A stretch of DNA of 64,000 nucleotides from assembly GCA_040954595.2 (NCBI GenBank), contig CM082589.2:9126894-9190893 (forward strand). The letters run 5' to 3'. Position numbers and translations under genes: made by a program. This stretch comes from Balanoglossus misakiensis. Lineage: Eukaryota; Animalia; Hemichordata. This document shows, piece by piece, positions 12,201-33,909 of this stretch. The notes beneath the pieces are model-generated. The model saw nothing but the letters and a program-made list of their open reading frames with translations. It ran no database searches and was not told where the DNA came from. The number at the start of each line of letters is the position of its first letter. Position 1 is the stretch's first letter.

Positions 12201-14205
12201 AGACATCAGTTAGGTGACCACATACCCCAAACCCCGTGTCTCGGTTATCACTGGTTCTGGAGAAGAAGATTTTTGAAATTTAAGCCAGATTTCAGAAAAA
12301 AAATTGTAGCAAAAAAACTGCAACATTGACAGCAAAATTTCCAATTACAAAAATGATGGGTAGAAGGTAGTCTACCTGCATGCCAAATTTGAAGTCGATC
12401 TGACTTGTAGTTTCTGAGATCTGAGATTTGATTTTTTTCAGAAAATCCAATATGGCCGCCAGGTCACGTGACTAATTAATTATTCACAAGTCACTGCACA
12501 TCTACTCATTGACCTTGACCACTGTAGCAAGTTTGAGAAGTGTACCTGCAGTAGTTTCAGAGATCTCGTTGGCCGAAGAAATTGACACAAGAAAAAAGAA
12601 AGAAAGAAAAACCCCAACGAAACCAATAGGGCCCAAGCGCTTGCGTGCGCTTGGGCCCTAAAGAAAGAAAGAAAGAAAGAAAGACAGAAAAACCCCAGCG
12701 AAACCAATACGGGCCCAAGCCTGGCTTGGCTTGGGCCCGTAAAAACCCCAGCGAAACCAATACGGGCCCAAGCCTGGCTTGGCTTGGGCCCGTAATTAAA
12801 GCTGCAAGCAGCATTGTCCGGGCCCAAGCTCTATTATCTGATCTGATATTAGATATGCACATAATTAATGAGTAGAAACATAATGCTCTGTTTTATCCCA
12901 TGAAATATCAAGGTTATATCTATGTTTGGTGTTGATATAGTGTAAAGTAGGTCAAAGGTCTCCCAGGGGTCACCCACAATTTGGGCAGAAAATTTTGACC
13001 CATAGTGGTCCATGTCCAACAAAAACCAGACCTCTAGCCCTTTTGGTTAGCCTGGAATTAGGTATGCACATAAATAATGAGTTAAGCAGGTGTCACAGGT
13101 GACCCAAAACTTTGGCTTTTCATTTTGGCCCCATACCTCCAAACGCCAAGGCTGTATCTGCTGTGGATGTCGAGATATGCAAAAGTAGGTCAAAGGTCAC
13201 CCAAGGTCACCCAACATTTGGGCAAAATATTTTGACCCCATACTGGTTCATGTATAACAAAAACAAAACCTCAAGGTCTATTGGTTCATCATTAATTAGG
13301 TATGTGCATATTTAATGAGGTCAGCAGAGGTCAAAGGGGTCATGAGAAGTAGCAAAATTTTTTGATCACATACAAATCCACATACATCAAAAACCAAACT
13401 TATAGCCCTATTGGTTAGCCTGGAATTAGATATGCAGAAAAATGATGCGTCAAAAGTAGGTCAAAGGTCATTGCCAAAATTACCAAAATATTTATAGCTT
13501 ATTCTTGTCATATGCTGATTCATATCCATAAAAAGAATTTTTGTGCTATCAATTATTAGGCTAGAAAGGGAATTTTTACTTTTTAATCGTTTTTCACAAA
13601 ATCCAATATGGCCGCCATAATCTTCGACCAATCACATTCATCTTCGCAAACTTGATAGACATCTGTTTAATGACCACACACACCAAATCTTGTGACTCGG
13701 TTATCGCCGGTTCTTGAGTAGAAGATTTTTCAAATTTTACTAAGGTTTTTCGTAAATCCAATATGGCCGCCATAATCTTGGACCAATCACTATGATCTTC
13801 GCAAACTTGATAGACATCAGTTAGGTGACCACATACCCCAAACCCCGTGTCTCGGTTATCACCGGTTCTGGAGAAGAAGATTTTTGAAATTTAGGCCAGA
13901 TTTCAGAAAAAAAATTGTAGCAAAAAAACGGCAACTTTGTCAGCATAATTTCCAATTACAAAAATGATGGGCAGAAGGTAGTCTACCAGCATGCCAAATT
14001 TGAAGTCGATCTGACTTGCAGTTTCTGAGATCTGAGATTTGCATTTTTTCAGAAAATCCAAGATGGCCGCCATGTCACGTGACTAATTAAGTATTCACAA
14101 GTCACTGCACATCTACTCATTGACCTTGACCACTGTAGCAAGTTTGAGAACTGTACCTGCAGCGGTGTTTGAGATCTAGAGCGATAAAGAATGGAACCAA
14201 GAATA

Positions 14206-14237
<32 letters not shown>

Positions 14238-14400
14238 CAGAAAAACCCCAGCGAAACCAATACGGGCCCAAGCCTGGCTTGGCTTGGGCCCGTAAAAACC
14301 CCAGCGAAACCAATACGGGCCCAAGCCTGGCTTGGCTTGGGCCCGTAAATATTCCAACAATACCAATAGGGGCACAAGCCCGATAGGCTTGTGCCCCTAA
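210..14400 (-). mobile_element. Tandem array (~9 units) of Helentron-associated non-autonomous elements (HINE/DINE-1/pearl-like architecture), satellite-like
   Basis: Junction motif AATTAAAGCTGC(A/G)AGCAGCATTGTC at 2472, 3891, 5356, 6795, 8337, 9777, 11185, 12794 (period ~1.41-1.61 kb). On the minus strand a full unit reads: GGGCCCAAGC..GCTTGGGCCC hairpin, (TTTC)n microsatellite, internal ~145 bp and ~200 bp subrepeats, subterminal GCTTGGGCCC, small palindrome GCTGC-TT-GCAGC, then TTT. This is the known HINE layout. No coding capacity. Confidence 0.8.
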
Positions 14401-15363
14401 TTAAGAGCTCTTAGATTCTATCTTGGTGTACATAGATTTGCACCTACTGCAGCAGTGGTTGGAGACACTGGCTGGATATCGTCAAAAACTAGGCATTATG
14501 TTAACATGGCTAGACTTTGGAATAGGTTGGTCAAAATGGACGAACAAAGATTGTGTAAGCGTATTTTCATGTGGGATAATTCGTTATGCATAAATAATTG
14601 GAGTTTTGAAATGAATGAAATTTTTAATTCTGTGGACATTGATGTACTAGAAAATGGGGGAATTTGTGACATTGATCACTTAAAAGAAAAGCTCCATGCT
14701 GATACAATTGCTTCTTGGTCAAACAATATTATTAACATTCCAAAACTGCGTATTTATAGACATTTTAAAACGTGCTATGGAAAAGAATCATATCTTTCAT
14801 GTATTCTGGATCGTAGTAAACGTTCTTTCCTAGCTCAACTCAGATTAGGAATTTTGCCATTACGAGTAGAAACAGGCAGATTTAGAGGAGAAGCTTTGAA
14901 TGATAGAATTTGTATATTTTGTTCAGAGAATGCAGTGGAAGACGAATTTCATTTTCTTTTGCACTGTACCTTATATACTGAATATCGAGAGCATTTATTT
15001 GATATTACCAGTAAGCATTTTTCAGAGTTCCAAGATTTGTCAGAAATAGAGAAACTAAAACTGCTCCTCAATGAAATGAGTCGAAGCACATCAAAATTTA
15101 TTGCTAAAGCTTATTGGAAACGGCAGTCTGTACTCTACGAAGTACGCTGACAACCTACATTTTTTTGTCTGCAATTTCTGTGCGAGATTTTTCAGATACC
15201 TGTGTAGTTTTTACTTCATTTTTGTGTGTGTGTATCATGAACAGCAACTCAGATGAATATGTATTTCTTTTTGTTTAAAGTGACTAATAAGCCCGTTGTG
15301 GCTTGGTGTTGAAAAAACACTAGTCACTATAATAAAAATTATCTATCTATTATCTATCTATCT
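14401..15363 (+). mobile_element. 5'-truncated non-LTR retrotransposon (RTE-X-like) 3' end
   Basis: The reading frame from 14401 (RALRFYLGVHRFAPTAAVVGDTGW...) continues into ORF 14455-15150 with LRLGILPLRVETGRF and the C-terminal knuckle CIFC-x5-EDEFHFLLHC typical of LINE ORF2 ends. Followed by a 3' UTR, AATAAA and a (TATC)n tail. Clade assignment is from motif recall. Confidence 0.8.
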
Positions 15364-15367
15364 ACAG

Positions 15368-15741
15368 GATGGAGTCACCCCTTTGAATGATGCAGCAGGG
15401 TTTGGTGGTGAAGGCTGTGTCAGATTGTTATTGGAACACAAAGCTGATGTTACCATACAAACCCAGGTAAATACCAACTTGACTTCTGCAGGTTAATCTA
15501 TCAGTATGGAATGATTTATTCATTTATTTTTTGTTTGTTTGTTTGTTTGTTTGTTTGTTTGTTTTTTGTTTAAGGAAAATTACACATTACGTTTAATTTT
15601 TGTGACATTGTTCTCATGCTCCTCCTTCATTACTTACAGTGGGGAGACACCCCTTTGCACTCTGCAGCAAGGAGGGATGTTGGTGAAGGCCGTGTCAGAT
15701 TGTTATTGGAACACAAAGCTGATGTAACCATACAAAACAAG
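15368..15741 (+). CDS. Two single-ankyrin-repeat exons (15368-15466, 15640-15741)
   Basis: AG/GT-bounded, phase 0-0, 99 and 102 bp: DGVTPLNDAAGFGGEGCVRLLLEHKADVTIQTQ and WGDTPLHSAARRDVGEGRVRLLLEHKADVTIQNK. Both fit the GxTPLHxAA...LLLxxxAD ankyrin consensus. Confidence 0.85.
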
Positions 15742-17099
15742 GTAAATACCAACCTGACTTCTGCAGGTAAATTCTAAAAGTATGAGCTTTCTCAATAGTG
15801 CCATTTCCTCTGTAGTTTTCTTAGTAAATTGTGTCTGGGATACAATGTATATATTTGTCCATTGCCCTTTGAATCAAAACTACTCCCTCCATTGGTCAGG
15901 TGTTGTACAGATAGACTGATGACAGTCCATGCCAATCCTATCACAGAACGTATCAGATAGGGTGATTGTCTGTCGGCCTCCAGCATCTGCCAACTCCTGT
16001 CTGGTACCTAATACAATTCATCATAAGGAGGTGCCATATAATTTGTCACTGTCCTTTGAATCAAAACTACTTCCTCTCGGCCACGTGTTGTCCAGACACA
16101 GGCAAGTATTGATTCATTATGGTGATGTGATTGTCTCTCCTATATCTGAGACATTTGATCTCCACTGTGAGCAATTTGGAGTTATGAGAAAGGGGGATTG
16201 TCTCCAGCATCTGCCAAAAACTGTCTTGTTGAACATAAGGATGTTGTTGTTTATTGCATTGTTTATCATCAATCTTTTGTGGTTTAAATAATAATCTCAT
16301 TATTGGCACAGCGATTTCTGTCTGTCCTTCTGTAGACAGATTTTGTTCCACTCATATCTTGAGAGAAATTGAATCCAATGATATGAAATTTTGTATGTAG
16401 CATTGTTATGATAAGTTCTAGATCTGATAAGATTTTGGTGGGTATGGCTTATTAATAAATTCTCCTTTGCATATTTGTGTGTGGTCGAACGTTGATTCAC
16501 TACATACACATGTAGAATAACATAAACAGTGTCTTGTATCAAACATAATTAATGGAAAAAGGGAAGCGAGAGAGAGAGAGACTTTGTCCCTTTAATATTC
16601 AGGAGTTTACTTTTCTTGTATACGTACACTCTTATAACGATTGTAAATCTTGAGAATGGCTATCAAGTTGACAACCCTCGCACAAGTACATCATGTACAT
16701 AAACAAAAATAGTCTGGTTTGTGGAGCCTCCTCCCTTTTTTACATGAAGTACTTTCACAATATTTTTATGCAATCAGTCCACACTCATGCTCAGTTTTGT
16801 GTCAGAATTATAGTCATAGCAACATTTTGAGTAAGACTTTACCAGAAGAACTTGTTTTCATTGCGGCTCTGATTGGGGCCGTTTTAAACTGGGGTTTGTT
16901 TGGCAACTTTTAGGACCGAAAGACGGATGCGCAGCCATGGTCACATCACACATGTCAAGTTGGGGACTTGCTGGGGGCAGGGGTGCTTGTTGACGGTGCC
17001 GAGAGGAGTCGGCCAGTTTTAGCTTGTACTTTAGGCTGAATAGCACAGTGCCAACCCAATTTACCTTTTATAAACTTTATACAATATAATACATTTTAA

Positions 17100-18400
17100 C
17101 ATTAAATTGTTCAGTCGGATGATTTTTTTCATCATTCTGAGCAACACAGCGGCAGCATTTGGATTGCTCTTTCTCTTGGAAATAGCTCAAGCTTATAAAA
17201 CATGAGGTCTGTGCGGCTCCACTCCTCAGCTTCTCATCACTGTCTGTCACTTACCCAATCATTTCAAAGGGGGTGATCAAGATGGCCAGAACAGCCAGTT
17301 TTAACCAACCAGGTTCCAGAACCTGAGAGAAGGTGCTAAAAGCATGCAATAGATATATTGATGAGATAAACATTGGGAACAATAGGATTAAGGGAAGTGT
17401 GACTGGTCCAATCTGTTCTGTTTTAGTGTGGGGCACGGCTGGAATGGTTACACAAATGTCCTTTAAAGTTAGTGCTACTGTGGCTTTCAATGGTATCTCT
17501 TATGAAGAGTTTTGATAATTTTGTTTGTTCTTTATATTTCATGAAAAGAATGACTGCATTCATTGCATTTAATTTTGTTTGCCACACATTCCCATTGGCC
17601 ACAGTGTCCACTGAAGTCTTTCTTTGGTTATTAGACTTTTTGATGCAGTGCGATGGAGAAAGGGAATCAGTGTTAACTTTCTTTAGATGGATTTTTTTTT
17701 CGGTGAAATTCAAGTTTTTTTATTTAAACACTATTTCTACAAATAACTAGTGACACCATTGCACAACTCTACTTGATATTGTTGGACCACTCAGCAGAAA
17801 TTTATTTTAATGATGATTGATTTATCCCTTGTCACATACAATTTCTCTGTTATTTCCCCTTTGATCCACATCGTTCAGTCTGCACAGCTTGGCTACTTTG
17901 TGCTGAGAACAGTCTGATGCCCTCCTACAGGAAATAAACATAGTTTGGTTAGCTCAGATGTTTGATCTGTTTCCACATAAATCTCCACATATCTCAAATT
18001 TGTCATCATATTGGAGATGAGATGTGATTATTCAAAATTCTTCTGATAATTCTACTAAATGTCACTGTAGTTGTTTGCTAAATCTTCTTCTATATTGTGC
18101 AGGTTGCAAAAATAAATTGGTCCCATTCAGGAAATGTTCACTAACATCACATCACTGTCAGTTTTTTGATAGAAAATCATAAATAAAGTTCAGTTTAAAA
18201 TTGGTGTATTGGTTATCCGTAATGTTATCTGTTTTGCAAGTTGTCAAATTTGAGTTTGTTTGTGAATTATTTATAGTAACTTTTCTTTCTGTATCAACTG
18301 GCAGATATTTTGTCAGAATTCTTTTAGCTTGTTAAAATGCATGTATAAAACTGAATTACACATCTTGTGTGTAGAGTCGATACTGTTTCTGTTCAAATGC
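17100..18400 (-). mobile_element. Highly degenerate CR1/L2-like LINE ORF2 relic in the long ankyrin intron
   Basis: Broken minus-strand stretches loosely resemble APE endonuclease and pre-RT motifs (e.g. PVTLPLILLF). Many stops; boundaries approximate. Confidence 0.3.
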
Positions 18401-18550
18401 CATTTACTGTTGGTTAATATTATCCACAAGGGAGTTTGCGATTATTTGTCGTTTGTGTGTTTGTTCGATCGTTCATTTTAACAAAATAACCTCATGTTAC
18501 ATTTCATTTTTCTTTACATTCTCATCATGCTCCTCCTTCATTACTTACAG

Positions 18551-21500
18551 GATGGCGACACCCCTTTGCATTATGCAGTAAGAGGGTGTCGTGGTCAAGG
18601 CCTTGTCAGATTTTTATTGGAACACAAAGCTGATGTGACCATACCAAACAAGGTAAATACCAACATGACTTCTGCAGGTTAATTCTATCAATGCAGATAT
18701 ATTTATTCATTTGTTTGTGTCATTGTCTATTTGTTTGTTTGTTTGTTAGTTTGTTTGTTTGTTTAAGGAAATTTCACATTACATTTCAATTTTGTGACAT
18801 TATTCTCATGCTCTTCCTTCATTACTTACAGACAGGAGACACCCCTTTGCATTATGCGGCAAGGAGGGATGGTGGTGAAGGCCTTGTCAGATTGTTATTG
18901 GAACACAAAGCTGATGTGACCATACAAAACGAGGTAAATACCAACTTGACTTCTGCAGGTTAATTCTATCAATGCGGATATATTTATTCATTTTATTGTG
19001 TGTTTGTCTATTTGTTTGTTTGTTTGTTTCGTTAAGGAAATATCACATTATATTTCAATTTTGTGACATTATTCTCATGCTCCTCCTTCATTACTTACAG
19101 ACAGGAGACACCCCTTTGCATGATGCGGCAAGGAGGGATGGTGGTGAAGGCCTTGTCAGATTGTTATTGGAACACAAAGCTGATGCTAACATACAAAACA
19201 AGGTAAATACCAACCTGACTTCTGCAGGTTTATTCTATCAATGCGGATATATTTATTCATTTATTTGTTTGTTTGTTTGTTTGTTTGTTTGTTTAAGGAA
19301 ATATCACATTATATTTCAATTTTTGTGACATTATTCTCATGCTCCTCCTTCATTACTTACAGGATGGAGACACTCCTTTGCATTATGCAGCAAGGAGGGA
19401 TTGTGGTGAAGGCCTTGTCAGATTGTTATTGGAACACAAAGCTGATGCTAACATACAAAACAAGGTAAATACCAACCTGACTTCAGCAGGTTTATTCTAT
19501 CAATGCGGATATATTTATTCATTTATTTGTTTGTTTGTTTGTTTGTTTGTTTAAGGAAATTTCACATTATATTTCAATTTTTGTGACATTATTCTCATGC
19601 TCCTCCTTCATTACTTACAGGATGGAGACACCCCTTTGCATTATGCAGCAAGGTTTCGTGATGAAGGACATGTCAGATTGTTATTGGAACACAAAGCTGA
19701 TGCTAACATACAAAACAAGGTAAATACCAACCTGACTTCTATAGGTTAATTCTGAAAGTATTGAAATATTTTTTTGTTTTTTTTTGTTTAAGGAAATTTC
19801 ACATTATATTTCAATTTTTGTGACATTATTCTCATGCTCCTCCTTCATTACTTATAGGATGGAGACACTCCTTTGCATTATGCAGCAAGGGATGATGATG
19901 AAGGCCATGTCAGATTGTTATTGGAACACAAAGCTGATGTGACCATACAAAACAAGGTAAATACCAACCTGACTTCTGCAGGTTTATTCTATCAATGCGG
20001 ATATATTTATTCATTTATTTGGTTGTTTGTTTGTTTAAGGAAATTTCACATTATATTTCAATTTTTGTGACATTATTCTCATGCTCTTCCTTCATTACTT
20101 ACAGACAGGAGACACCCCTTTGCATTATGCGGCAAGGAGGGATGGTGGTGAAGGCCTTGTCAGATTGTTATTGGAACACAAAGCTGATGTGACCATACAA
20201 AACGAGGTAAATACCAACTTGACTTCTGCAGGTTAATTCTATCAATGCGGATATATTTATTCATTTTATTGTGTGTTTGTCTATTTGTTTGTTTGTTTGT
20301 TTCGTTAAGGAAATATCACATTATATTTCAATTTTGTGACATTATTCTCATGCTCCTCCTTTATTACTTACAGACAGGAGACACCCCTTTGCATGATGCG
20401 GCAAGGAGGGATGGTGGTGAAGGCCTTGTCAGATTGTTATTGGAACACAAAGCTGATGCTAACATACAAAACAAGGTAAATACCAACCTGACTTCTGCAG
20501 GTTTATTCTATCAATGCGGATATATTTATTCATTTATTTGTTTGTTTGTTTGTTTGTTTGTTTGTTTAAGGAAATTTCACATTATATTTCAATTTTTGTG
20601 ACATTATTCTCATGCTCCTCCTTCATTACTTACAGGATGGAGACACTCCTTTGCATTATGCAGCAAGGAGGGATTGTGGTGAAGGCCTTGTCAGATTGTT
20701 ATTGGAACACAAAGCTGATGCTAACATACAAAACAAGGTAAATACCAACCTGACTTCAGCAGGTTTATTCTATCAATGCGGATATATTTATTCATTTATT
20801 TGTTTGTTTGTTTGTTTGTTTGTTTAAGGAAATTTCACATTAGATTTCAATTTTTGTGACATTATTCTCATGCTCCTCCTTCATTACTTACAGGATGGAG
20901 ACACCCCTTTGCATTATGCAGCAAGGTTTCGTGATGAAGGACGTGTCAGATTGTTATTGGAACACAAAGCTGATGCTAACATACAAAACAAGGTAAATAC
21001 CAACCTGACTTCTATAGGTTAATTCTGAAAGTATTGAAATATTTTTTTGTTTTTTTTGTTTAAGGAAATTTCACATTATATTTCAATTTTTGTGACATTA
21101 TTCTCATGCTCCTCCTTCATTACTTATAGGATGGAGACACTCCTTTGCATTATGCAGCAAGGGATGATGATGAAGGCCATGTCAGATTGTTATTGGAACA
21201 CAAAGCTGATGTGACCATACAAAACAAGGTAAATACCAACCTGACTTCTGCAGGTTTATTCTATCAATGCGGATATATTTATTCATTTATTTGGTTGTTT
21301 GTTTGTTTAAGGAAATTTCACATTATATTTCAATTTTTGTGACATTATTTTCATGCTCCTCCTTCATTACCTACAGGATGGAGACACTCCTTCGCATGAT
21401 GCAGCAAGGAGGGATGGTGTTGACGGCCTTGTCAGATTGTTATTGGAACACAAAGCTGATGCTAACATACAAAACAAGGTAAATACCAACCTGACTTCAG

Positions 21501-21970
21501 CAGGTTTATTCTATCATTGCGGATATATTTATTCATTTATTTGTTTGTTTGTTTGTTTAAGGAAATTTCACATTATATTTCAATTTTTGTGACATTATTC
21601 TCATGCTCCTCCTTCATTACTTACAGGATGGAGACACTCCTTTGCATTATGCAGCAAGGAGGGATGGTGGTGAAGGGCTTGTTAGATTGTTATTGGAACA
21701 CAAAGCTGACGCTAACATACAAAACAAGGTAAATACCAACCTGACTTCTGCAGGTTAATTCTGAAAGTATTGAAAGATTTTTTTGTTTTTGTTTTTGTTT
21801 AAGGAAATTTCACATTATATTTCAATTTTTGTGACATTATTCTCATGCTCCTCCTTCATTACTTACAGGATGGAGACACTCCTTTGCATTATGCAGCAAG
21901 GAGGGTTGGTGGTGAAGGCCTTGTCAGATTGTTATTGGAACACAAAGCTGATGTTAACATACAAAACAAG
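18551..21970 (+). repeat. Array of 14 tandem exon+intron units (~235-280 bp), each exon one ankyrin repeat
   Basis: Exons 18551-18652, 18832-18933, 19101-19202, 19363-19464, 19621-19719, 19858-19956, 20105-20206, 20374-20475, 20636-20737, 20894-20992, 21130-21228, 21377-21478, 21627-21728, 21869-21970. All are 99 or 102 bp and phase 0-0. Introns are near-identical: GTAAATACCAAC...(TTTG)n...CATTACTTACAG. A degenerate further exon starts at 22148. Confidence 0.95.
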
Positions 21971-23784
21971 GTAAATACAAACCTGACTTCTGCAGGTTTA
22001 TTCTATCAATGCCGATATATTTATTCATTTGTTTGTTTGTTTGTTTGTTTGTTTATTTGTTTGTTTGTTTGTTTGTTTGTATAAGAAAACACATTTCATT
22101 TCAATTTTTGTGACATTGTTCTCATGCTCTTCCTTCATGACTTACAGAAAGGAGACCCCTTGGATTTTGCAGCATATGTCATATAATTTTGTCATTGTCC
22201 TTTGAATCAAAACTGCTCACTCTGTCAGGTCAGGTGTTATACAGGCAGGTGTGGAAACGATTTGCATTCCTTTCTTTCTTTCTTTGTTAATCAATCAATT
22301 GTTGTTCTATTCATTGATCATCACCCCCCCTGTATCATGAACATTACAAGGCAATGCATTGAATTCAGCTCTTCCAGCTAGTGGCCGCACTTGCTTGATT
22401 TCCTGCGTGTGTCTCTGGGGATGAAAAGAATGCATATGCGTCTTTTCCTAATTTGCATATTTTGAATGGGTGTTCCAACGTGAGTAACCGTTCATTTGAC
22501 TTCCAGCTCGCATCGAATACACACGTTAGGGACTGTTCAGTTTTTACGGCTGGGGGGGGGGGGGGCAAGTTTGGGTCATCGATTTTCAAAATCAGGCCGA
22601 CCCCCCCTTCACCGAGGACCAAAAAATGATAACCCCCCCCTTTGACAGACCCAAAATATGATGACACCCCCCCCCTCCCGCTGAAAACATTCGCCGTGCT
22701 GATCCTATGTACACTGTATGCAATAAAGGGAATGAGGCTCCTCACACCTCAATTATAAATTTCTTAAAGTAATTGAAGTATATATAATAGTATATCGTTG
22801 CAATAAAAAATCTATGAACAAAATAAAATGACAAGTCAATACAATAGAAAATTTAAGAAAACTTTGTAAAATACGGTGCTCAAAGTTGCATTCGAATGAA
22901 CTCTAAAGCAAATTAACTCAATGTTAGGCAGGACAAATTTTAATTTGGCCACTCCACTCAAAGTAAACATCGGGGGTAGGGTGGGTAGAAGTCTGCCGTG
23001 GTACACTAGACAAACCAGCGAATAAATGATATGTGGCGAAGAGTGGAAGGGGAGGGGTGTGCGAGGGGGTGTCCCCCTCCCACATAAGAAAATTTTGTAA
23101 AATATGTAGCTCAAAGTTGCATTTTTATGAACTCAAAAGCAAATTATCTCAGTGTTTGGGAGGACCTAAAATTTGACTTATAGGTGTGCGTGCCTCAATC
23201 ATCTGATGCATGTATTCATCTATGAAAATTTGTGATCCATTTTCAGAACGGAGTGACTCCTTGTCAAGAGGCAGGAAGGAAGGCTGGGCGGGGTGCAGGC
23301 ACCAATATTGCAAGAGCCTTTGTGGAATATCATTTTGACAATGAGAAAGTATATCAGGCAAGTATTGAGTTAGATTTAAAAGGGCAAGGTTACTCACTTT
23401 TGATAAAACAGTGAAATTGTGTCAGTTACCGACCACCTCTATATAGTGGCCACTTTGTTACAGTCCCTGTGCAGTTAACATGGGCAATTATTGACTTGTA
23501 TATACAGGCCACCTGTCTATTAAGGCCAATTTAGGAAAGTCACTCTGACTGGCCAATTTGGACTGTGAGATTTGGCTGTATTTCAGTTATTTACCAATTG
23601 GCTCTTTCTGTTGTTCTAAAAGATGCTCATTGACCAGTTTTATAAAGCTTACCGGCAACTCACACCTGACACATGGATATTTAAATCCATTTATTTTTTA
23701 CCAAAATTATTTAACAATAGTGTCCATAATATGCATGGTGTGGTATAATTGTCATAATCCTGTACTTTACAGCTAGTTCATTTA

Positions 23785-23927
23785 AGCAATAAAACACCCC
23801 CAGCCATGGTGTACCACTCGATTTTGACCAGTTCACGACAAATACGCAGGAGCGATAGCGAGTGCGTATATGGAGTTGAACTGGTCAAAATCGAGTGGTA
23901 TACCATGGCTGGGGGTGTTTTATTGCT
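23785..23927. repeat. Long hairpin (51-bp arms) of a dispersed non-autonomous element; inverted second copy at 33910-34051
   Basis: AGCAATAAAACACCCCCAGCCATGGTGTACCACTCGATTTTGACCAGTTCA ... TGAACTGGTCAAAATCGAGTGGTATACCATGGCTGGGGGTGTTTTATTGCT (1 mismatch). Confidence 0.85.
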
Positions 23928-24915
23928 ATTATATTATGCCAGTATATTGAAACTTTGCATAAAACATTTTAAAAAGGCATTTTCTTTGACTATGATATAT
24001 GACTATGGTATATGGCTAATATATCACAGTCACGTGTCATGTCTCGACCAATAAAATAGCGTGATTTACACCATCAATATACTGGTATAATATAATCAAT
24101 CATATATGTTCTGTTTTCATCAATGAAAATACAGGCAGTTATAAACTCAGTGTATGACAGAGATGACAAAAGAGACCTGATCAACCATCATAAGGTACGT
24201 CGTAATGTTGATAATAAATGGCTATGAAAACATATCATATCACTAGTGTATTTGAATTTATCTTCTATATTTATAACATGGAAAACATAAAACCAGACTG
24301 TCATATAAATTTTTAACTACATGCTTATTCTATTGTGCCAGCTAGGAATGCATTAAAGGGACATTACCTATAACTTTTGGCTTTATTTCCAGATTTTTTT
24401 CCTTTTGTGTACAAAATGCAATTTCATGTTCTTCTCCAAACTGCATGCTAATATGCCCAGTACTCAACTTGTGTATATTTCCCATCTCTGTAACAACCAT
24501 TGTTATTGTTGACTCATGAATTCTAGTCCGGACTTCAATTCAAATTTTGCAAAATAACAATGTTGAATATACACAAAGAGTACACAACTATCGAGGTATG
24601 CGTCACAAAGAGATGGCAAACTTATGCAAATAGAAGTTATGGAAAAAATATGTTAAATTTGGCAGCTCATGAGGCTTTAACTATGCATTATTTCTATAGT
24701 GTTAATGATAGCTTCCACATCATAAGCACATCATAATAGTGTAGTTAACAATGTAAATTATATTTTTGATACTAGCGTTTTTATCAATATCTTTTCTGAA
24801 GCAAAATGTTATGTGACTTCTGTGAAGGCATGGTGTTTAATTGAAAGGCATGCAAATTGAGTGTAAAAATTCCCAATATATATAACACATAACATATCTG
24901 TTCAAATTCTGACAG

Positions 24916-26714
24916 GTGTTTTCCCGCCAAAAAGAATTCACAGCACTCATGAGACAACCTGGTGTCAAACGTAATACTACAAAGATTGTGTTAGCTGGAT
25001 ACGGTGGGAATGGCAAAACTACACTCAAAGAATCATTGCAGCGGGTGTGTAGAAATCTTTGATTATGAATGCCAATTATTGCTGTTTTTGAGGAGTGAAG
25101 GATTTGTGCAAATATTAAAGTTTTCATGAAGACTACATTTCAGTGGAAATCAGGGTACATATTTTGTTGACCAGCCAATTCTCCAAATATTTTATATTAT
25201 TACAATATGATTGGCATTAATCCAGCTTGCTGATTGGCCCGAGTCGCGGTTTATATCCTCAACGAGAAGACCTGAACCCTGAACAGTGAATAACTAAAAA
25301 ATAACCGAAATGGGACACATAGAACAGAACGCCTCGCCTCGCTCAGTGATTATTTCCCGCCAAATATGCTAAGTTTCACCTGGGAGGTCTTATATCCGGA
25401 ATCAAATACTCTCGCTTGCCGTTTATAAGTTTACAACCTCTAAATTATGAGAAAATCATCATTTATGTTCATATATTACAATGCAGAACTTTGTGCAAGC
25501 AAAATTGACTCGACGGTCAGAAGAGAAAGCACCTTTACCAGGGAACATGCAGTACACACCAACACCCGGCATAGATGTAGCCACATTATCCATACCCAAG
25601 ATTGGCAAGTTCAGTGTGTGGGACTTTGCGGGACAAACAGAATACTATGTCACACATAATATGTTCCTAAGGGTCGAGAATGCAGTGGTTTTATTGGTCT
25701 TCAAAATGGCTGAGGACAAGCAGGATGTAGTTTGGACACCAAGAAAACTTATGCAACAGCAGAGACAAGAGGTGGGTCGTTGTTTTTTTGTTACTGATGA
25801 TAAGTGATATTAATACTTTGAGCAATTATGGAATAAAGGTAAAGATGAAACTCAGAAAGGGCACAGTGCATATATTACAATATTTTTTTTATTACTAAGC
25901 AGTGCATCAGTGAATTAGGTGGTGCAATATTGTGAATGAAATTAAAGTAAAGATGAATGGCACAGTATATATATTTGTGAAACATTTATCTCTTTTTGTT
26001 TTTATCCAGATTTAGGGACTGATTGAATATAATATGATTGATGACTTTATATTCTTCTTCATGTCTTTCTTTAATAGGTGACATCATGGCTTGCATTCCT
26101 TAAGGCAATCATACCACAAGATATGGATGAGGGTGGGAGTAAACCAAAAGTGATATTGATTGGAAGCAAGGCTGATTTGTTGAAAGCTGAACACAAGAAA
26201 GAAGGTATGTTCAGTACATGTTTAGATAAAAGGTGACAAGAGCGAGGGTATTCACACAATTGGGAGCCTGGTGTGGGAGTACACTCAATCTGATTAAAAC
26301 CAGATGTAGTGTTGGGCGCTGTCTTTACCTTTGCTGATTCTTGGCTGTTCTGTTCGAAAGGGACACCCATACTACATCTGAACCTATGCAAAAGGAGATC
26401 TCATTACTATTCAACATTTTACCTATTCAGACAGTGTGATTGATGTAGAATTTCACCGGATGCTTTCAAAAAATACAAAACAGCACCAAAGTGGCCTCTT
26501 CTGTGTACATGTCCATACTTTGTAAATAAAAATCTATCAAGAGATCATTACTTTTTTCTTGATAGCTGAATTGGTGATGAGGGAAATACTCCAGACAGCT
26601 CAGAAGACCTTTGGCAAATACCTGAATATTCTTGATGAGACATTCATACTGAATTGTCACAACTCGCAGCATAATGATATGCACAGATTGCGTGAATGTC
26701 TACGAAGTGCAAAG
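24916..26714 (+). CDS. ROC GTPase domain exons of the Roco gene
   Basis: P-loop KIVLAGYGGNGKTT (24916-25044), switch I TPGID and G3 VWDFAGQTEYY (25487-25771), G4-like LIGSKAD (26078-26204). Splice phases join without stops. Confidence 0.92.
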
Positions 26715-26935
26715 GTATGGTTTTATAGATATTCTGCAATATGTGACTGGATTGAACATGTTAATTCATTAGGGCCATATTTGACAAAGGCATGCTTTAC
26801 ATCACCTTAATACTCTCATGTAATGCATAGAGTCCAAGAAAGCCAACTATCAGATAGTAATAACTGAACTCTTATCAGTGGGAAATAAGTCAAGGTTGTA
26901 TACTTTTGACTTACCGGGTATCAGAACTGTCTAAA

Positions 26936-27633
26936 AGGGCGTTCTCACTGGCACGTTTACACTGGTGCTACATCGGTGTAGATTTGACATCGACGGAAAA
27001 AAACAAGTGAGAACGCTTTACACCGGTGTTGGGCCGGTGTTAATTTGCGACAGCGATGGGTGGTGGGTCAGGGCCAGTGCTGGGCCAGCACTCCGACGCA
27101 AATAATCAGTGAGAACGCAAAGATAAACAAACACCGTTCAAAAGCGCCACCCTGCAGTGACTTTTGGGTATGTTTATTAGGTATAGCCCATTGTCTTTGG
27201 TCAGTTTCCATTGTTAAGTCAATCACACTGGACGCGAGTGGTTTTCAAACCATTCGCAGTTTGCCAGGTCTGCAACACTTCAGTCTGCTACCAACTTTCA
27301 GAAGGTTCTCTCGATCACCAAAAAGCCGAGGCATTTTCCATTTATGGATTAACATTCATTTACTTCTAAACATTATCAAAACTGTCACAAAGTCGTCTAG
27401 AACGTATATGCAGGTATATAAACTGCAACATGTTGCTGTAATGTCCTCGACATCCTCAATTTTGTTAGTTGCCGTGTTGCTAAACATGGCCATTTAGACG
27501 GTGTTTATTTCAAAACAGTGGCCAAAAGTTTAGTGTGTGGACGCAAGGAGATTCTGTGGGCTAATCCCCTGTGTTTGCAGAGAGTAAACACTGGCATAAC
27601 ACCGGTGTCCAAACTTTTAGTGAGAACAAGACT
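26936..27633. mobile_element. PIF/Harbinger-like MITE
   Basis: Left end GGGCGTTCTCACT, right end AGTGAGAAC, internal repeats of AGTGAGAAC and ACCGGTGT. TSD not clean. Confidence 0.4.
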
Positions 27634-28029
27634 TTAAATAATGGGCTGTGTCTGTAAAGGGTGAATATCACTGTTGCCAGTATTGTTCGAGTTGCTTTTC
27701 TGAATGTTCATTTCACCAAACAACAGTATTATGGGGGTCATCGTTAAGACGTTTTTGAAACATCTCAGATGAAATACTGGCGTAAATTATCATGTGTGAA
27801 TGGTTTAAGTGGTCCTGAAACGTCTCAGATTTGAGACGGCTTTGGTCAGACCTGAGCCAGTGTAAGGATTAACACCTCTCCGCAACCCATTGTTTGTGTG
27901 TGTGTACACAAGGCGACTTAAAGGATTAATGCTCTGTGTTTACTATTGGCAAATAGTGTCTATAAAATGTTTTGAATTTTACCCTGTCTGGACATGAACC
28001 TGGTATATGTCGCTGTGTTAATGTTACAG

Positions 28030-30471
28030 AGAGAAGAATACATACCAAAGTTGTGTGCTAAGATACTTGATGGAAGAAGCAAATGGATTGTGAGCAGTTT
28101 CCCGGTCATCAAATGGAAAACATATATAGAAAGAGTGAAAGAGTTGGATCGTTTCATTGATGAAGAGTTTCTAAAGAAAGCTACGAGATACCTTTACTAC
28201 CTTGGGGAGGTAAGAAATCATTGCTGAAGACATTACCCCACTTGATCAGTAGGTTAAGAAATCTATGGAGGATACTGTAAAACAGGTTATTTCGCGAGCA
28301 ATAAATTTTCATGAAATATGCGAGAGCCCCCAAAAATGTGAAAATACAAAAGTCGCATAAAATGTTTTTTTTCTTAGATAACAATGCAGTTAGTGAAATA
28401 CGAGAAAGCCAAAATTAATCCATGCATAACAGTTGCTTCTTTTGATATCGCGAAAATTTCCTGTCGCGAAAAGAACCCGTTTTACAGTATGAAGTCATAC
28501 TACAAGAAAATGTTCTCGCAAAGTTTGGAGAAAGTACAGTACTGCAATTATGTTTATCACAGAACAATTACTGATGAAACCTTTCCAAAGACCAACAGGA
28601 GTTCTGAAAGTTTTCTAGAAATTCTTTAAAACCTATCAATGTCAGGGTTCATCAAAAATAGAGGGCATCATTGACTTGAACATATAAACCATGGGATATG
28701 AAAAGCAAGTACTAATACAGAAACCAGAAATAACGCTGGAAAATTTGTTGACAGGGGGTGTGCTTGTGTCAACCGTTAAGTGCACTCTTTGTTTGATCAT
28801 GATTAGTGTCATACAAATTTAACCCTTAAGAGGGATCTGGGGGTGAAAGGCTTGACAGAGCCTTTTGCTGAGGATCTAGACAGGGATTCAAGACTGAGAA
28901 AAAATAACAGAAAAGGCCCTCTGCTATAAACATGTTTTTGTGGTCCATGTGTGTCACTAGTGTGGGTATAGCCCTGACATTGTTCCTAAATCACCAGTGG
29001 CAATATTGTGGCGTTGATGAGTTTTTTTTCGATCACTATAGCTGAGATGGTTTGGCCAGGCAAGGCTAGACTTGGCCTGGGTTTCGCGGTTTCCCTATGT
29101 ATGATCAGCCATGCACACATCTACATACTGGTATGTGTGTCACTAAGATATATGCACAATTTCATTTGAATAAATGTCTCAAAACATAAGTATTTTTCCC
29201 CATTGTTTATTCACAGATGCTCCAAATCGAGAGTACCCTACCAGATTCAGATGACGTCATTGTTCTTGATCCCCAATGGTTATGTTCTAGAATATTCGGT
29301 CCCATGCTGGCTCCTGAAATATTTGAGCAGTTTGCAAACCGCTTGCCGCGGAAGTCCTTACATATGAGAAGCGAAATTGAGGAAGTTTTCCATGGTCTGG
29401 CAGATATTGATTTGCTCATAAATCTTCTCAAAGAGTTTGACCTTCTCTACGAGGTCATTTCTGAATCCAATACTGTAACTGGGTATGTAATACCTGGGTT
29501 GTTGGACACAGATATGCCTGCAAATCAGTGGAAACAGGATGCTACTAATTTACTATGGCAGACGGTTCCAATGCAGAGATGATGCTGATAGTTTCTCGCC
29601 AGGATTTTTCCCCCGACTTCACGCCCGAATAGAATGCCATTTCCGAAAGATCAACCAACAAACAAGTGGTATATGGAAAAATGGCATCAAAGTGTGTCAC
29701 AATGCAGAAGGCTTGGTGTATATGACAAAAGGTTGGAGAGCTATCCATGTTTGTGTTAGAGCAGAGAAAGAAGAGGAAATCGGCGAATGCTACAAATTAT
29801 TAGAGACAATAACTGATATTGTTTATGAAGTGTTAGAGATCTGCTGTCCTGGTACAAGACTTGACATCCACGTGTTGAGTTCAGATTCTCTTCGAAACCA
29901 TCGCAACCTTGAAGATGTCACATTCTATACATTGAAGCAAATTCGGGAAGCAGAAGAGAGGAATGAGAAGGTGTACAACGAGGAGATGGTGATTTCAGAA
30001 GCAGCTACTGACTTGCTTTGTGCTGGGTATGATACAACCATCCTCCGACACAGTGGATATGAAAGTGATGTCAAGTGGATGCTGAAGGATGCCCTCAAGA
30101 TATTTTCTAATATCATGGATATCATCCGTTTATCCGGCAATGACTACAGGGCTATGGCAGACTTGATGGGGATCCCTCGCATGGAGGTGGATTCATGGCA
30201 ATACAGTGCATTGATTCAATCCCCCACACAACATGCTTTATCTGTTTGGTCCAAGGGCTGTGGAGGACAACAACGTGCAGGCCAACAGCCAACTGCAGAT
30301 AAGAAATTCTGTAAGAGCAATTTTTCCAACCTGGTTAAAATTCTTGAGCAAGAAAGTTGTGATGTCTACGCTGCCAGAGAAGAAATACATGAGATGTTCC
30401 GAAAACTTGGTGTGTCAGCTGATCATCATGATGTTGAAGATGACATGGCTCATCTACATCTAACGTCCTAA
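28030..30471 (+). CDS. COR domain and C-terminal death domain exons (28030-28209; 29217-30471)
   Basis: DAPK-type COR motifs YLYYLGE, IVLDPQWLC, YYGRRFQC, FSPGFFPRL, IWKNGI; death-fold-like GNDYRAMADLMGI...SPTQHALSVW. The frame changes near 29545 between ORFs 29217-29582 and 29539-30471. Confidence 0.85.
28275..28487. mobile_element. Tc1/mariner-type MITE with TA target duplication; further copies at ~60049-60253 and partial ~62560-62604
   Basis: TA|CTGTAAAACAGGTT ... AACCCGTTTTACAG|TA; internal sequence shared with the 60 kb copy. Confidence 0.75.
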
Positions 30472-33400
30472 GATGATGACATCAACATCTCTGAAGCAGA
30501 CCATTGTGACGTCAGTATATCAATTTCTGATTAGTATGGCAAATGATGGCAGTATTTCCATGGAACTTGTTGCAATGTCTGAGAAATTTAACTGAGTAAC
30601 GTAATGTGCGTGTGCAAGGAAAAGGTTCCGTACACACATACTGTTATAAGCCCTGCAGAGAAATCAAAGCCAATACACCAAACCACCCTCCACCATTACT
30701 GTCTTCTCAATAACCAGGCTGTACAACGAGGAGATGGTGATTGCAGAAACAGCTACCAACAGGTGACACAACTAAAGATAAATGAATGGAATCTGTGACA
30801 TAGATCTAGAATGAGATAACAGAAAGTGAATTACCCAAATACAGTACAAGACCATCCTGCAGATACTGACCTATTTGAAGTGTATGTAATGGTTAATTAC
30901 AAATTAAATCACTCTAAGGAACATGATGTCATGTCAGCTTCACAGGATGGAGACACATGCAAATAAAGTGAGTCAATTACAATTATGAGAAAGTGACTAC
31001 TAAGAAATTGTCATGTTGAGTTTACAAACTGCAGCTAATGACATCAATGACCATTATAGCAAAATAAAGTTGATTTTTTTTAAAATTCTAGTGATTTTTG
31101 TGATTTGTTGCAACATTTTTTATTCAAATTATTGTTTTCACCAAAAAGCTGTACAGTAATATTTTTAATCCTGATCATCAATATCTTCATTAGAAACATT
31201 ACTTTTGTTTGTTGACAGATTTAGGAAATTCACTCATGTTCACAATGATTTTGTGTAATGTTCTGGACTTCGGTTTTGATGTGTACTATTTCCCAAAAGC
31301 AAATGACTACCCAAGAATATGCAATTTAAGAGAGGTTGTCATACACTTCTTGCTTTCAATTACATTGAACACACTCTCAACATCTTTTTTCTATGTACAC
31401 AAGTTGTCACTTCAAGATCATTCATATTAGGATTGAGAAACTATTTTCTTAATTTTGAATTATAAACTAATACAGACATCACCATTCACATTTTGCAGAC
31501 ATGCTATTTAGGTGGTCGACATATCTTTATATTTTTAGTATTAAAATGTGGGAAGAGTCACTTTGAAAACAGAAAAAAATTTGCTTTCTCAAAAATAAAA
31601 ATACTTCAAATTTTCTCAATACACATTGAATGGTGGCCATCTTGATTTTAAAATTTGAATCAGTTTCGCTTTATCATTCAAAATTATGCCTGTTTAAAGG
31701 ATATAAGAGTAAAAATCTCGCCAAAATGAATAAACGGTAGAGACCGATTATTCATTTTGACGAGTGTTTTACTCTCGTGTCTACAAGTGAGATGGAAGTT
31801 GTGGGTGGTCGAACGTTGATTCACTATATATCCACAGTCTTGTATCAAACATAATTAACAGAAAAATGGCAGCGAGAGAGAGATTTTGTCCCTTTAAATG
31901 TTATTCCATGTATGACCTCATCTTGGATATGAATATTATCTGTTACCAATCCTTGCAATGTAGTTTCCATAACTGCAGTTTTACAGCTCTTTTTCATGAG
32001 GACTTGAGAAATGAATTATTTACTGCTTCTTCACAGCCAGAAAGATTCTTTATAGGTATTTAAAATCCTTGATGTGTTCAAAATAAATCTGTTACTTTTG
32101 CAATCTTTTGTGTATATGTGTGTCCATTGTTAGCATCCGCCCACCCCCCCCCCCCCCACCCCCCGAGTTGAACACGGGCTGCCAAATTATTGCAATACAA
32201 GACATGAACTATTCCTACTTGCTTCTCATGTTTGGTTTTAATGTGCACCTTCAAAATCAGTCATATTCTCCTCAATACAACTTTAGATTATTCTTGCTTA
32301 AAACAAAGAATACAGATTAATTATTCATCGTAAAAATTTGAATGACAAAAAATGTCTCAAATTTGAAATTCAAAATGGCGCTATAACTCCATGGTGAACA
32401 TTGTTTATTTTTTTATGAAACCAAGGTGATGAAAATCATTTTTTTCAAATAGACTTCATATACACTTTAATACAAAAACATGGAAGAGATTGGAGGACTG
32501 ATTTTTGTGAAAATAACCAACTTAATGAATTTTTTTTCACTCAACTACTGGAAAGTAAGCTGGGCTTTGATTGGTTGCTGACTGAGACAAATGTGTAGAT
32601 AACCAATCACAACACAGCTACCTTCATGATTGAGCATGTAGAAAGTGTAGTCTCCCTCAGAAATCGCCCAAAACATCGCTATTAATGCGAGCAGAGGATA
32701 GCATGTATGAACTTTGACATGAAATTGGTAGTTACCCTGGTTACGACGTTGATTTGTGACTGGTACACTTTCCACCCTTTGAAGAAAGAAAAAAAGAAAC
32801 AAGTTCTTTTCTGTGCAACACTTCAGAGTCACAAGTGATTTTCATCAAGAGAAACTTCTATCAGGCAAATTTTACTTGAAATGTTTGAAGAATTGGCACT
32901 GGGTTGATTTTATTTTGGAGTGAGTTAAGTACTCAGGGAGTCATCATTTGGTATCCCCAGGGGGGTCTAGATGCTGTTTTCTGGGGGGAGAGACAATTCA
33001 TTCCAGTGGAATGTGACACTTAGGAAATAAATAGACCATAGCACCAAAAAGAACAATTTCAGAATAAAATCCCTCATAACAGATCAGCTCACAATCAGAA
33101 TGCAGATAAGTATATGAGATAAGAGAAATTCCAACAAATGTCTTCATATTTGACTTCCAGTCCAACTTGAGTGGAAATGGCATAAACTTCAATGATTTTG
33201 TGCCCTTGAGCAAGGCACTTTTTATTCCCATTGATCTGGGGGGACTGACTTTGTATAGATGATTGTTCTAGTCATCCTATCCTAGGTAGACAACATTTCT
33301 GTGTTTGATATGGATGAATTAAATAAATAAAAAACTGCATCGTTAGCCATTTTTGAATGCTGCTAAATAATAAATATATCCAGAATTTGATAAAACAATT

Positions 33401-33909
33401 CTATTTGAAATCCATTGTTTTCTTTGGCAATATATGACAATAATTTTGTCGCAAATATATAAATGGTATATATACAGTATTATATTATATCATGCTACCG
33501 TCCGCAATTCTGATTGGACGAGAGCTCAATCCAGCGATGCTAAAATACTCATAATGCACTGCTGGCAGAGCTAAAACGGGCCCCTGCTGAACTAGCATAT
33601 GGCAGCAAAAACCACAGTTGCGCGTGTTTAAACCAAATAAATAAAACAACAATACTGTTGAATTAACGGACGTTTTATTTTGGAATTGCTCTGTGGAAAT
33701 ATTTTTCACTTTGCCACGCGCGATGCCCGTCTTGTCACTTTTTGGCGTCTGCTTCATGTTTAATGCTCGATCCCGGCTGGATCCCGGCCGCTCGTGTTTA
33801 CATTCATCGTCGCCATGTTGGTTCACGATCGTAATTTCTCTTTATGCCGCCGTTTCGGTAAGAAAATGACACTGATATGCCTCAAAAACAATTGTTGATA
33901 TAATATAAT

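Follow-up and report, generated by a model that had tools for sequence, protein, structure and literature searches.

A candidate germline-diversified ankyrin-ROC-COR-death gene in the hemichordate Balanoglossus misakiensis

Introduction

The question addressed here is how invertebrate deuterostomes diversify their intracellular sensors. The 64-kb stretch of Balanoglossus misakiensis DNA analysed here (the window) carries a 6.6-kb array of ankyrin exons upstream of exons for a ROC GTPase, COR and a death fold, and its diagnostic exons offer a concrete and cheap test. Is this a receptor gene with diversified repeats, and by which route would the diversity arise? In the literature covered, which lies mostly outside subscription journals, no account of a hemichordate ankyrin-ROCO family or of its exon arrays was found. 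The family is not mentioned in the main text and one supplement of an immune challenge study in acorn worms (Tassia 2023, PMC10210618). What is said below of cited papers refers to the portions of them that were available.

Results

The ankyrin exon array

The array (15368-21970, + strand; Table 1) consists of 16 exons which each encode one repeat, ankyrin and not LRR. Each of the 16 is flanked by an AG acceptor and a GTAAAT donor, is in phase 0-0 and contains no stop, and all 32 splice sites are retained. Five are 99 nt and 11 are 102 nt long, giving units of 33 or 34 residues. The number of exons, their phase and their two lengths are as the preliminary description of this DNA had them. Exon 4 matches Pfam Ank (E 1.5e-9). 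The introns are homologous to one another and 137-179 nt long, except that exons 2 and 3 are separated by 2809 nt. It had also been claimed that any subset of these exons could be skipped, duplicated or reordered in frame. The symmetric phases do make skipping and duplication in frame possible; reordering has to be given up, since to our knowledge ordinary splicing cannot achieve it.

Neither a start exon nor an N-cap exon was found within the window, and the 5' end of the gene lies outside it. Reverse-strand copies of the ankyrin exons are absent from the 64 kb, which hold one relic on the same strand. Directly upstream of the exon 1 acceptor a likely LINE fragment occupies the place of the array's usual intron. 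Its label is tentative and is helped by an Atlas lead in which 60% of a cluster carries zf-RVT (score 0.92); Pfam gave no match to the fragment. A 14.4-kb tandem array also lies upstream of the ankyrin exons.

Table 1. Coordinates of the features in the window
Feature	Position	Strand	Remarks
LINE 3' fragment, likely	14401..15362	+	249-codon ORF 14401-15147, then TATC-type tail
Ankyrin exon 1	15368..15466	+	99 nt; TPLH changed to TPLN
Ankyrin exon 2	15640..15741	+	102 nt
Ankyrin exon 3	18551..18652	+	102 nt
Five-exon block, tandem duplication	18790..21334	+	period 1273/1272 bp; 4 mismatches, 1 indel
Ankyrin exon 4	18832..18933	+	102 nt; identical to exon 9
Ankyrin exon 5	19101..19202	+	102 nt; identical to exon 10
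Ankyrin exon 6	19363..19464	+	102 nt; identical to exon 11
Ankyrin exon 7	19621..19719	+	99 nt; 1 change from exon 12
Ankyrin exon 8	19858..19956	+	99 nt; identical to exon 13
Ankyrin exon 9	20105..20206	+	102 nt
Ankyrin exon 10	20374..20475	+	102 nt
Ankyrin exon 11	20636..20737	+	102 nt
Ankyrin exon 12	20894..20992	+	99 nt
Ankyrin exon 13	21130..21228	+	99 nt
Ankyrin exon 14	21377..21478	+	102 nt; TPLH changed to TPSH
Ankyrin exon 15	21627..21728	+	102 nt
Ankyrin exon 16	21869..21970	+	102 nt
Relic 17th ankyrin exon	22148..22186	+	array-type acceptor retained; truncated; in-frame stop after 12 codons
C-cap exon	23247..23357	+	111 nt; best fit a GC-AG donor
Linker exon	24135..24194	+	60 nt
ROC exon, P-loop intact	24916..25044	+	129 nt; matches 43 aa absent from P. 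flava P0016/P0006 isoform X2
ROC exon, switch I and II	25487..25771	+	285 nt
ROC exon, G4 region	26078..26204	+	127 nt
ROC end exon	26566..26714	+	149 nt; with G4 exon, 92 aa absent from P0015/P0005 isoform X2
COR-A exon	28030..28209	+	180 nt
Last exon	29217..30471	+	COR-A to 29546; COR-B ~29548-30036; death domain ~30061-30417; TAA 30469-30471
Frameshift site and premature TGA	29547..29582	+	TGA 29580-29582 in the assembled sequence

Recent duplication and mosaic repeats

Exons 4-8 and 9-13 are 99.7% identical copies, so that the array holds only 12 distinct repeat peptides, with a mean identity of 80%. By our own measure, which is not T-REKS, the mean pairwise repeat identity is 0.86 for exons 4-16 and 0.82 for all 16, which places exons 4-16 within the fungal-NLR type, defined by repeats that are 85% or more identical across 100 aa or more. 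The repeats are also mosaic. Among 20 informative sites 85 of the 190 pairs are incompatible, neighbouring sites less often than others (p=0.014), and this points to conversion or unequal crossing-over. The nearest neighbour of each repeat is found in its own protein, both for the window (12/12) and for the relative P0017 (15/15). Copy-number change and conversion were two of the routes of diversification proposed earlier; the block duplication bears out the former, and the mosaic repeats speak for the latter or for unequal crossing-over in its stead.

Selection on the repeats

Substitution counts show purification of the repeat framework: at positions 20-29 a single replacement (23.8 sites) stands against 13 silent changes (22.8 sites; p=0.001). 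Replacements concentrate at positions 13-19 (p=0.001), and their pattern follows the variability in the independent repeats of P0015 (Spearman 0.50, p=0.003). Compared with silent sites, the excess at positions 13-19 falls short of significance (ratio 1.6, p=0.26-0.35); it passes only against pooled silent and intron sites (ratio 2.4-3.3, p=0.025-0.004), a comparison for which the region was picked after viewing the data and in which the introns may be constrained. A set of high-entropy sites taken from P0015 gave p=0.08-0.32. Across the repeats pN/pS is 0.73, no different from 1 (p=0.38), and a dN/dS above 1 in the repeats was not significant in the site counts. The stretch at positions 13-19 is a G-rich trinucleotide-like run.

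The term "DARPin-like library" used earlier overstates the case, given 12 repeats of 80% mean identity in which the positions that we take to be diversified in DARPin libraries (2, 3, 5, 13, 14 and 33) carry the same residues in 5 of 16 repeats. Enrichment of change at these positions gives p=0.026 for all 16 exons and p=0.36 for nine core units, values which vary with the placement of the extra residue in the 34-aa repeats. Set against such a library, the framework is fixed and most change falls at positions 14-19; positions 15-19 are presumably the turn between the helices and not the canonical concave face.

The ROC-COR-death exons and the frameshift

Eight exons downstream of the array encode the C-cap, ROC, COR-A, COR-B and the death fold. 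The order is the one described earlier; the frame is not intact, being broken in the last exon at 29547. Of the domains for which a HMMER search had been suggested, Pfam Ank and Roc (E 2.2e-8) are found, with P-loop and switch motifs of ROC aligning intact. COR follows directly after ROC with both halves below the curated cut-off (COR-A E 8.7e-4, COR-B E 4.8e-6), and the Death match is weak (E 0.072). By fold COR-B, out of frame as assembled, aligns to the C. tepidum COR (VIA Z 13.7, rmsd 2.5, 138 aligned) and the death domain to that of MyD88 (Z 11.7, rmsd 3.1, 104 aligned) and to many other death domains. The top 10 Foldseek hits are all death domains, none at E<=0.001. A NACHT or NB-ARC ATPase is absent; the NTPase is the ROC GTPase, with a weak P-loop-level match to NB-ARC (E 0.077).

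At 29547 the assembled sequence has 1 nt where 10/10 aligned homologues have two residues. This leads to the TGA at 29580 and removes COR-B and the death domain from the assembled frame. The out-of-frame sequence for these domains is conserved and open for 307 codons, and the ROC-to-death part deviates at 15 of 197 conserved columns (homologue range 2-48). We consider the frameshifted copy to be probably a freshly broken allele; that the frameshift is an assembly error has a smaller, still appreciable, chance.

Dead gene, splicing library or decoy

The alternative that survives best, which we nevertheless find unlikely, is that of a pseudogene whose most recent exon duplications reflect neutral turnover of tandem repeats without effect on a receptor. 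The frameshift, the likely LINE at the exon 1 acceptor, the 14.4-kb array upstream, the relic exon 17, the altered TPLH in exons 1 and 14 and the pN/pS of 0.73 agree with it, and that no stop has arisen says little, the chance of none in 46 changes being 0.10; yet the 3.9 kb of spliced sequence carries a single lesion, the GTPase motifs and 32/32 ankyrin splice sites are retained, and the framework is purified (p=0.001-0.003). It follows that a loss of function, if any, is recent, and that the array mostly grew under selection.

A third proposed route was combinatorial splicing, by which cells would use varying subsets of the 16 exons to obtain a library of ankyrin receptors from one gene. This we regard as doubtful indeed. 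Every ankyrin exon is symmetric with near-identical splice signals, but in repeat proteins it is common for an exon to cover entire repeat units (Schaper 2014, PMC3995336), and symmetry by itself therefore does not indicate splicing. Alternative splicing of repeat exons has been reported in brown-algal ROCOs (Teng 2024, PMC11378527) and in human NLRP3 (Hoss 2019, PMC6642158), although in NLRP3 a single skipped exon dominates and yields an inactive form. Only 12 distinct repeats, 80% identical, would be available to such a library. The ankyrin content is unchanged in 3/3 RefSeq isoform pairs of relatives (P0015/P0005, P0016/P0006, P0025/P0017), a weak comparison because short reads resolve near-identical arrays poorly. 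The three pairs differ in ROC exons or at the N-terminus, and two of them skip ROC exons whose borders equal those of the window.

Use of the truncated ankyrin-ROC-COR-A product as a decoy or brake on paralogues seems very improbable to us. The premature stop sits in the last exon, and such stops usually escape nonsense-mediated decay. Relatives have annotated in-frame isoforms without GTPase exons, and the C. tepidum Roco dimerises via the C-terminal half of COR (Civiero 2014, PMC4104024). The 307 open and conserved out-of-frame codons, on the other hand, suit an error or a lesion of very recent date and not an old selected truncation.

Kinase and family

No kinase match was found in the window, as had been described, or in 10/10 relatives scanned; the nearest relatives have a kinase-less ankyrin-ROC-COR-death architecture. 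There are 13 matches, 12 from P. flava and 1 from Saccoglossus. P0001, P0015 and P0016 begin with Met and an ankyrin N-cap, and the nearest relatives share 55-60% identity with the window gene. A tree of the ROC-COR-death part (18 rows, midpoint root, kinase-bearing DAPK1 left out) groups it with seven P. flava paralogues (support 100/99). The gene is nested among kinase-less Ptychodera "DAPK1-like" proteins, within a large invertebrate ankyrin-ROC-COR family.

The wider family comprises 254 clusters at E<=1e-30. Among the 145 profile matches listed, 65 have at least two ankyrins, six of these with a kinase, and 59 are ankyrin-bearing with no kinase detected, so the architecture is no one-off. 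Ten matches that were looked up by name come from Glandiceps, Saccoglossus, Asterias, Branchiostoma, Amphiura and Anneissia. The tails include Death, CARD, GT4-conflict (glycosyltransferase) and TIR; many paralogues and swapped C-terminal effectors support the view that the family bears the hallmarks of conflict genes. Near-identical repeat arrays occur in 5/59 kinase-less against 0/6 kinase-bearing matches listed, and also in P0003 and P0017. An ordinary DAPK1 with kinase exons upstream of the window, suggested by the common domain order and by a 5' end beyond the window, is the least credible alternative, since the nearest relatives (55-60% identity) have no kinase, the best kinase-bearing match reaches 262.6 bits against more than 1000, and none of the six kinase-bearing matches listed has near-identical repeats.

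Discussion

A model for the gene

We lean to the view that this is a germline-diversified, kinase-less ankyrin-ROC-COR-death ROCO whose intact allele is likely a cytosolic innate sensor, the assembled copy being frameshifted. Unequal crossing-over and conversion in the germline have likely multiplied and mixed the 16 one-repeat exons in recent times. The ankyrin solenoid would bind a foreign or modified-self protein, and, in the manner of other ROCO proteins, binding would shift the GTP cycle of ROC and the state of the COR-mediated dimer. Once clustered, the death domains might recruit death-domain adaptors and so set off cell death or signalling through NF-kB. As the main source of diversity we expect alleles and paralogues that differ from one another (birth and death), and not splicing. 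We infer that an immune function of the gene is likely.

A bolder reading, to which we give little credence, is that deuterostome invertebrates have a family of ankyrin-ROCO-death receptors with a hypermutable exon-cassette array as the binding end. Haplotypes would then vary in the number and order of repeats, diversifying selection would act on the variable loops, and exon skipping would make cells differ further from one another. If true, animals would have a counterpart, so far undescribed, of the ROCO shuffling of brown algae and the repeat turnover of fungal NLRs, and would have it at the base of the lineage in which adaptive immunity evolved. Should haplotypes differ in exon number and order, animals would be linked to the brown-algal and fungal regime of diversification; should they not, the array is a neat example of exons amplified recently within a birth-and-death gene family.

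Comparison with known systems

Brown-algal LRR-ROC-COR genes (PMC3341825, PMC11378527) likewise place a ROCO switch behind a one-repeat-per-exon array, with recent exon turnover, inactivated spare exons and many broken loci; in Ectocarpus half of the ROCO loci are disrupted (Zambounis 2012, PMC3341825). They differ in having LRRs in phase 2 and no death domain, whereas the window gene has ankyrins in phase 0. Their spare exons occur on the reverse strand, while the window has one relic and no reverse-strand copy, and for them both splice variants and positive selection acting on the concave face are reported (PMC3341825, PMC11378527).

Fungal NLRs share near-identical ankyrin repeats, with 7 to >16 copies and recombination between repeats; such repeats make up only 0.8% in metazoans (Dyrka 2014, PMC4986451). 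In the fungal genes a NACHT or NB-ARC ATPase is combined with C-terminal repeats of demonstrated number polymorphism (PMC4986451); in the window gene the repeats lie N-terminal to a ROC GTPase, each in its own exon, and are read from one haplotype. Trichoplax ROCOs and prokaryotic AP-GTPase conflict systems are similar in combining expanded kinase-less ROC-COR proteins with repeat sensors and with effectors that vary between death folds and enzymes (Civiero 2014, PMC4104024; Kaur 2021, PMC8195603). Their sensors are TPR or LRR, and the available portions of these papers describe no ankyrin exon array. DAPK1 has the same domain order but starts with a kinase, and its repeats are diverged and fixed; the window gene is a member of a separate clade, which has expanded.

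Closest are the kinase-less "DAPK1-like" models of Ptychodera flava (XP_070546803.1, XP_070546714.1, XP_070550397.1, XP_070581709.1), Saccoglossus (XP_006815029.1) and Glandiceps (XP_077996865.1), automatic annotations known in the ankyrin part from proteins alone. They have the same ankyrin-ROC-COR-death-like order, and in the last exon the closest are 55-60% identical to the window gene. The borders of the ROC exons are shared, and the ankyrin repeats number 2-19, some within one gene being nearly identical. The window gene differs from them in its own repeat lineage, its 33/34-residue units and its frameshift. For this family "DAPK1-like" is a misleading database name.

Exon structure of the ankyrin array

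A motif scan of the window detected 16 ankyrin exons. Each is bounded by an AG acceptor and a GTAAAT donor, measures 99 or 102 nt in phase 0-0, contains no stop and encodes one ankyrin repeat. The preliminary description had claimed such single-repeat exons, and they are confirmed in 16/16 cases; Pfam Ank matches exon 4 with an E-value of 1.5e-9. The regularity of the array is far above what is expected by chance, and the cassette array is a real feature. Among animal ankyrin genes, 99-nt exons with a single repeat are a common layout.

The introns of the array are short and mutually homologous, and the copied unit is therefore exon plus intron. Exons 4-8 and 9-13 are tandem copies of one 1273-bp block with 4 mismatches and 1 indel, so that only 12 distinct repeats are present, with a mean identity of 80%. 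It is possible that this duplication is a false joining of two alleles. A broken 17th ankyrin exon is also found.

A second donor-like site (AG/GT) is located 25 nt past the ankyrin donor in 16/16 introns and would shift the frame if used; that of exon 2 matches the first donor in quality (CAG/GTAAAT). Exons 4, 5, 9 and 10 have an extra CAG acceptor 4 nt inside the exon.

Features of the window and their positions
Feature	Position	Strand	Remarks
Tandem repeat	1-14400		1.45-kb unit repeated about 10 times head to tail, copies 84-96% identical; every unit contains a 155-bp doublet, 53-bp repeats and an AAAG tract
Ankyrin exons 1-16	15368-21970	+
Broken 17th ankyrin exon	begins at 22148		acceptor retained
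Intron following the C-cap exon	23357-24135		best fit is a GC donor (CAG/GCAAGT)
Last exon	29217-30471
Frameshift	29547
TGA	29580
37-bp stretch of the last coding exon	29972-30008		recurs in the 3' flank at 30720-30756, 35/37 identical
Open frame, 657 codons	46358-48328	-	SAP domain (Pfam E 4.1e-5); likely belongs to a mobile element
Dispersed palindromic elements	23782-23937; 33900-34054		likely MITEs
Dispersed palindromic elements	31694-31897; 45636-45949; 58895-59208		likely MITEs

The ROC-COR-death exons and the frameshift

Eight exons beyond the array, found by tblastn with relatives and with their splice signals checked, encode the C-cap, linker, ROC and COR. The spliced sequence is 3913 nt long with a stop at codon 1008. 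At the frameshift in the last exon the window has one base where 10/10 aligned homologues have two residues; the frame therefore ends at the TGA, short of COR-B and the death domain. The order previously described, with ankyrin exons upstream of ROC-COR-death, is correct; as assembled, COR-B and death are not in frame with the rest.

The distal frame of the last exon has a predicted fold with a pLDDT of 86. The predicted COR-B aligns to the C. tepidum COR (Z 13.7, rmsd 2.5, 138 residues) and the predicted death domain to MyD88 (Z 11.7, rmsd 3.1, 104 residues), with Pelle, p105, FADD and others next. When the death domain was folded separately the best 10 Foldseek rows were all death domains (10/10), and zero matches with this domain alone reached E≤0.001.

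The frameshift is the sole lesion found in the spliced gene, and in the ROC-to-death part 15 of 197 conserved columns deviate, the range among homologues being 2-48. It may be a fresh mutation or else an assembly error. An intron bypassing it was rejected, as it would remove the conserved IPGLL and following residues found in the aligned homologues.

A family of ankyrin-ROC-COR proteins

A search with the last exon gave 13 matches, every one a “DAPK1-like” model of a hemichordate, either Ptychodera flava (12) or Saccoglossus (1), with a top identity of 60%. In an 18-row tree of the ROC-COR-death part the gene groups with seven P. flava proteins (support 100/99), which makes an acorn worm its probable origin. 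In a profile search, 254 clusters passed E≤1e-30. Among the 145 new matches listed 65 have at least 2 ankyrins, and a kinase is present in 6 of these 65, though part of the kinase-less matches may be fragments. Ten matches which were looked up come from acorn worms, starfish, amphioxus, brittle star and crinoid, and leads from the Atlas are ankyrin-Roc clusters of similar size in arthropods, molluscs and sponges. With relatives in so many taxa, the ankyrin-ROC-COR architecture is widespread and the window's gene is one member. Scanning metagenomes with an alignment of the relatives gave 149 pattern matches, of which zero were relatives.

Domain families were examined for 43 of the 145 matches, the longer, high-scoring ones, taking the best 5 families per protein; Death, CARD, TIR and a conflict-type glycosyltransferase are among the tails found. 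Combinations of ROC-COR with TIR or death domains are also shown for Aplysia (PMC9334734). In the homologous proteins P0049, P0045, P0046, P0048 and P0077 the tails after ROC-COR are GT4-conflict glycosyltransferase, CARD + Death, CARD and TIR; P0046 and P0048, like the homologue P0044, are from an amphioxus hybrid assembly.

No start exon, N-cap exon or kinase was found within the 64-kb window, in accordance with the earlier claim for the kinase exon, and a kinase is absent in 10/10 relatives scanned (calls based on Pfam and phmmer). Three relatives start with Met and an ankyrin N-cap. An N-cap match of the homologue P0001 at 58150 (E 0.03) lies downstream of the gene and was judged to be due to chance.

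Evolution of the repeats

The nearest neighbour of each distinct window repeat, by nearest-neighbour scores, is another window repeat (12/12), and likewise it is found inside the own protein for Glandiceps P0017 (15/15) and P. flava P0009 (7/7); the arrays have therefore undergone expansion or homogenisation separately in each gene. Among the matches listed, 5 of 59 kinase-less versus 0 of 6 kinase-bearing proteins have near-identical arrays, which are small numbers. In nine distinct units all four combinations are present at 85 of 190 informative-site pairs and neighbouring sites conflict less (p=0.014), as is typical when unequal crossing-over or conversion acts within units. The block duplication and these mosaic sites fit the proposal that exon copy-number change or conversion diversifies the gene.

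Positions 20-29 of the repeat are purified, with 1 replacement per 23.8 sites against 13 silent changes per 22.8 (p=0.001), and replacements are concentrated at positions 13-19 (p=0.001) and track the variability of the independent repeats of P. flava P0015 (rho 0.50, p=0.003). Overall pN/pS is 0.73 (p=0.38). At positions 13-19 the rate is 1.6-fold the silent rate (p=0.26-0.35), and the excess reaches p=0.004-0.025 only against silent plus intron sites, for a region picked post hoc. The repeats show a fixed framework and a free, perhaps selected, loop region.

The positions varied in DARPins (2, 3, 5, 13, 14 and 33) are enriched when all 16 exons are used (p=0.026) and show no enrichment in the nine core units (p=0.36). 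With 12 distinct repeats of 80% mean identity, the natural DARPin-like library suggested before is overstated, and a broad library is not apparent from the data. Two homologues, P0051 and P0057, resemble natural DARPin-like variation more closely than the window's gene does: their near-identical ankyrin repeats, of which 21 and 12 were detected, vary, by eye, chiefly at the hairpin and first helix.

Splicing

The exon phases permit in-frame skipping of any subset of ankyrin exons, a trait which Schaper (2014, PMC3995336) ascribes to many repeat-protein genes. Ankyrin content is unchanged in 3/3 RefSeq isoform pairs compared, and this speaks weakly against ankyrin-exon splicing; other isoform sets in the family are the trio P0046, P0184, P0185 and the pair P0042, P0178. 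In the P. flava pair P0016/P0006 one isoform is without the 43-residue P-loop exon, and in P0015/P0005 one lacks two ROC exons further on (92 residues); the borders match those of the window's exons in both. The third pair (P0025/P0017) differs at the N-terminus. This is a hint that the GTPase is the part spliced variably, and judged from sequence such in-frame isoforms would be GTPase-dead.

Possible mechanism and known systems

The gene product is a ROCO protein, not an NLR. By analogy with ROCO proteins (Civiero 2014, PMC4104024) and AP-GTPase conflict systems (Kaur 2021, PMC8195603), the product of an intact allele would probably capture a ligand on its ankyrin solenoid, and this would alter the nucleotide state of ROC and the dimer state of COR and lead death domains to cluster and recruit adaptors. 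A birth-and-death immune family is consistent with the size of the family, its exchanged effectors, the turnover of repeats and the broken copy. In a term search, the main text and one supplement of an acorn-worm immune-challenge study do not mention the family (PMC10210618). That polymorphic, selected and spliced cassette receptors exist throughout the deuterostome invertebrates we regard as unlikely.

Our literature search yielded no treatment of the hemichordate ankyrin-ROCO family or its exon arrays, though the brown-algal, Trichoplax and Kaur supplements may list ankyrin-ROC-COR-death architectures; extracts of PMC11514114 and PMC5135030 contain nothing on ankyrin exon layout. An animal sensor with known repeat-exon splicing is NLRP3 (Hoss 2019, PMC6642158). 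In how it works, the gene resembles the brown-algal ROCOs with one LRR per exon (Teng 2024, PMC11378527) and the fungal NLRs that have near-identical ankyrin repeats (Dyrka 2014, PMC4986451). Half of the Ectocarpus ROCO loci are disrupted according to Zambounis (2012, PMC3341825), as is the frameshifted copy assembled in the window.

Flanking sequences

The 14.4-kb tandem repeat looks non-coding and probably sits within an intron of the gene, and a likely LINE fragment adjoins the acceptor of exon 1 on its upstream side.
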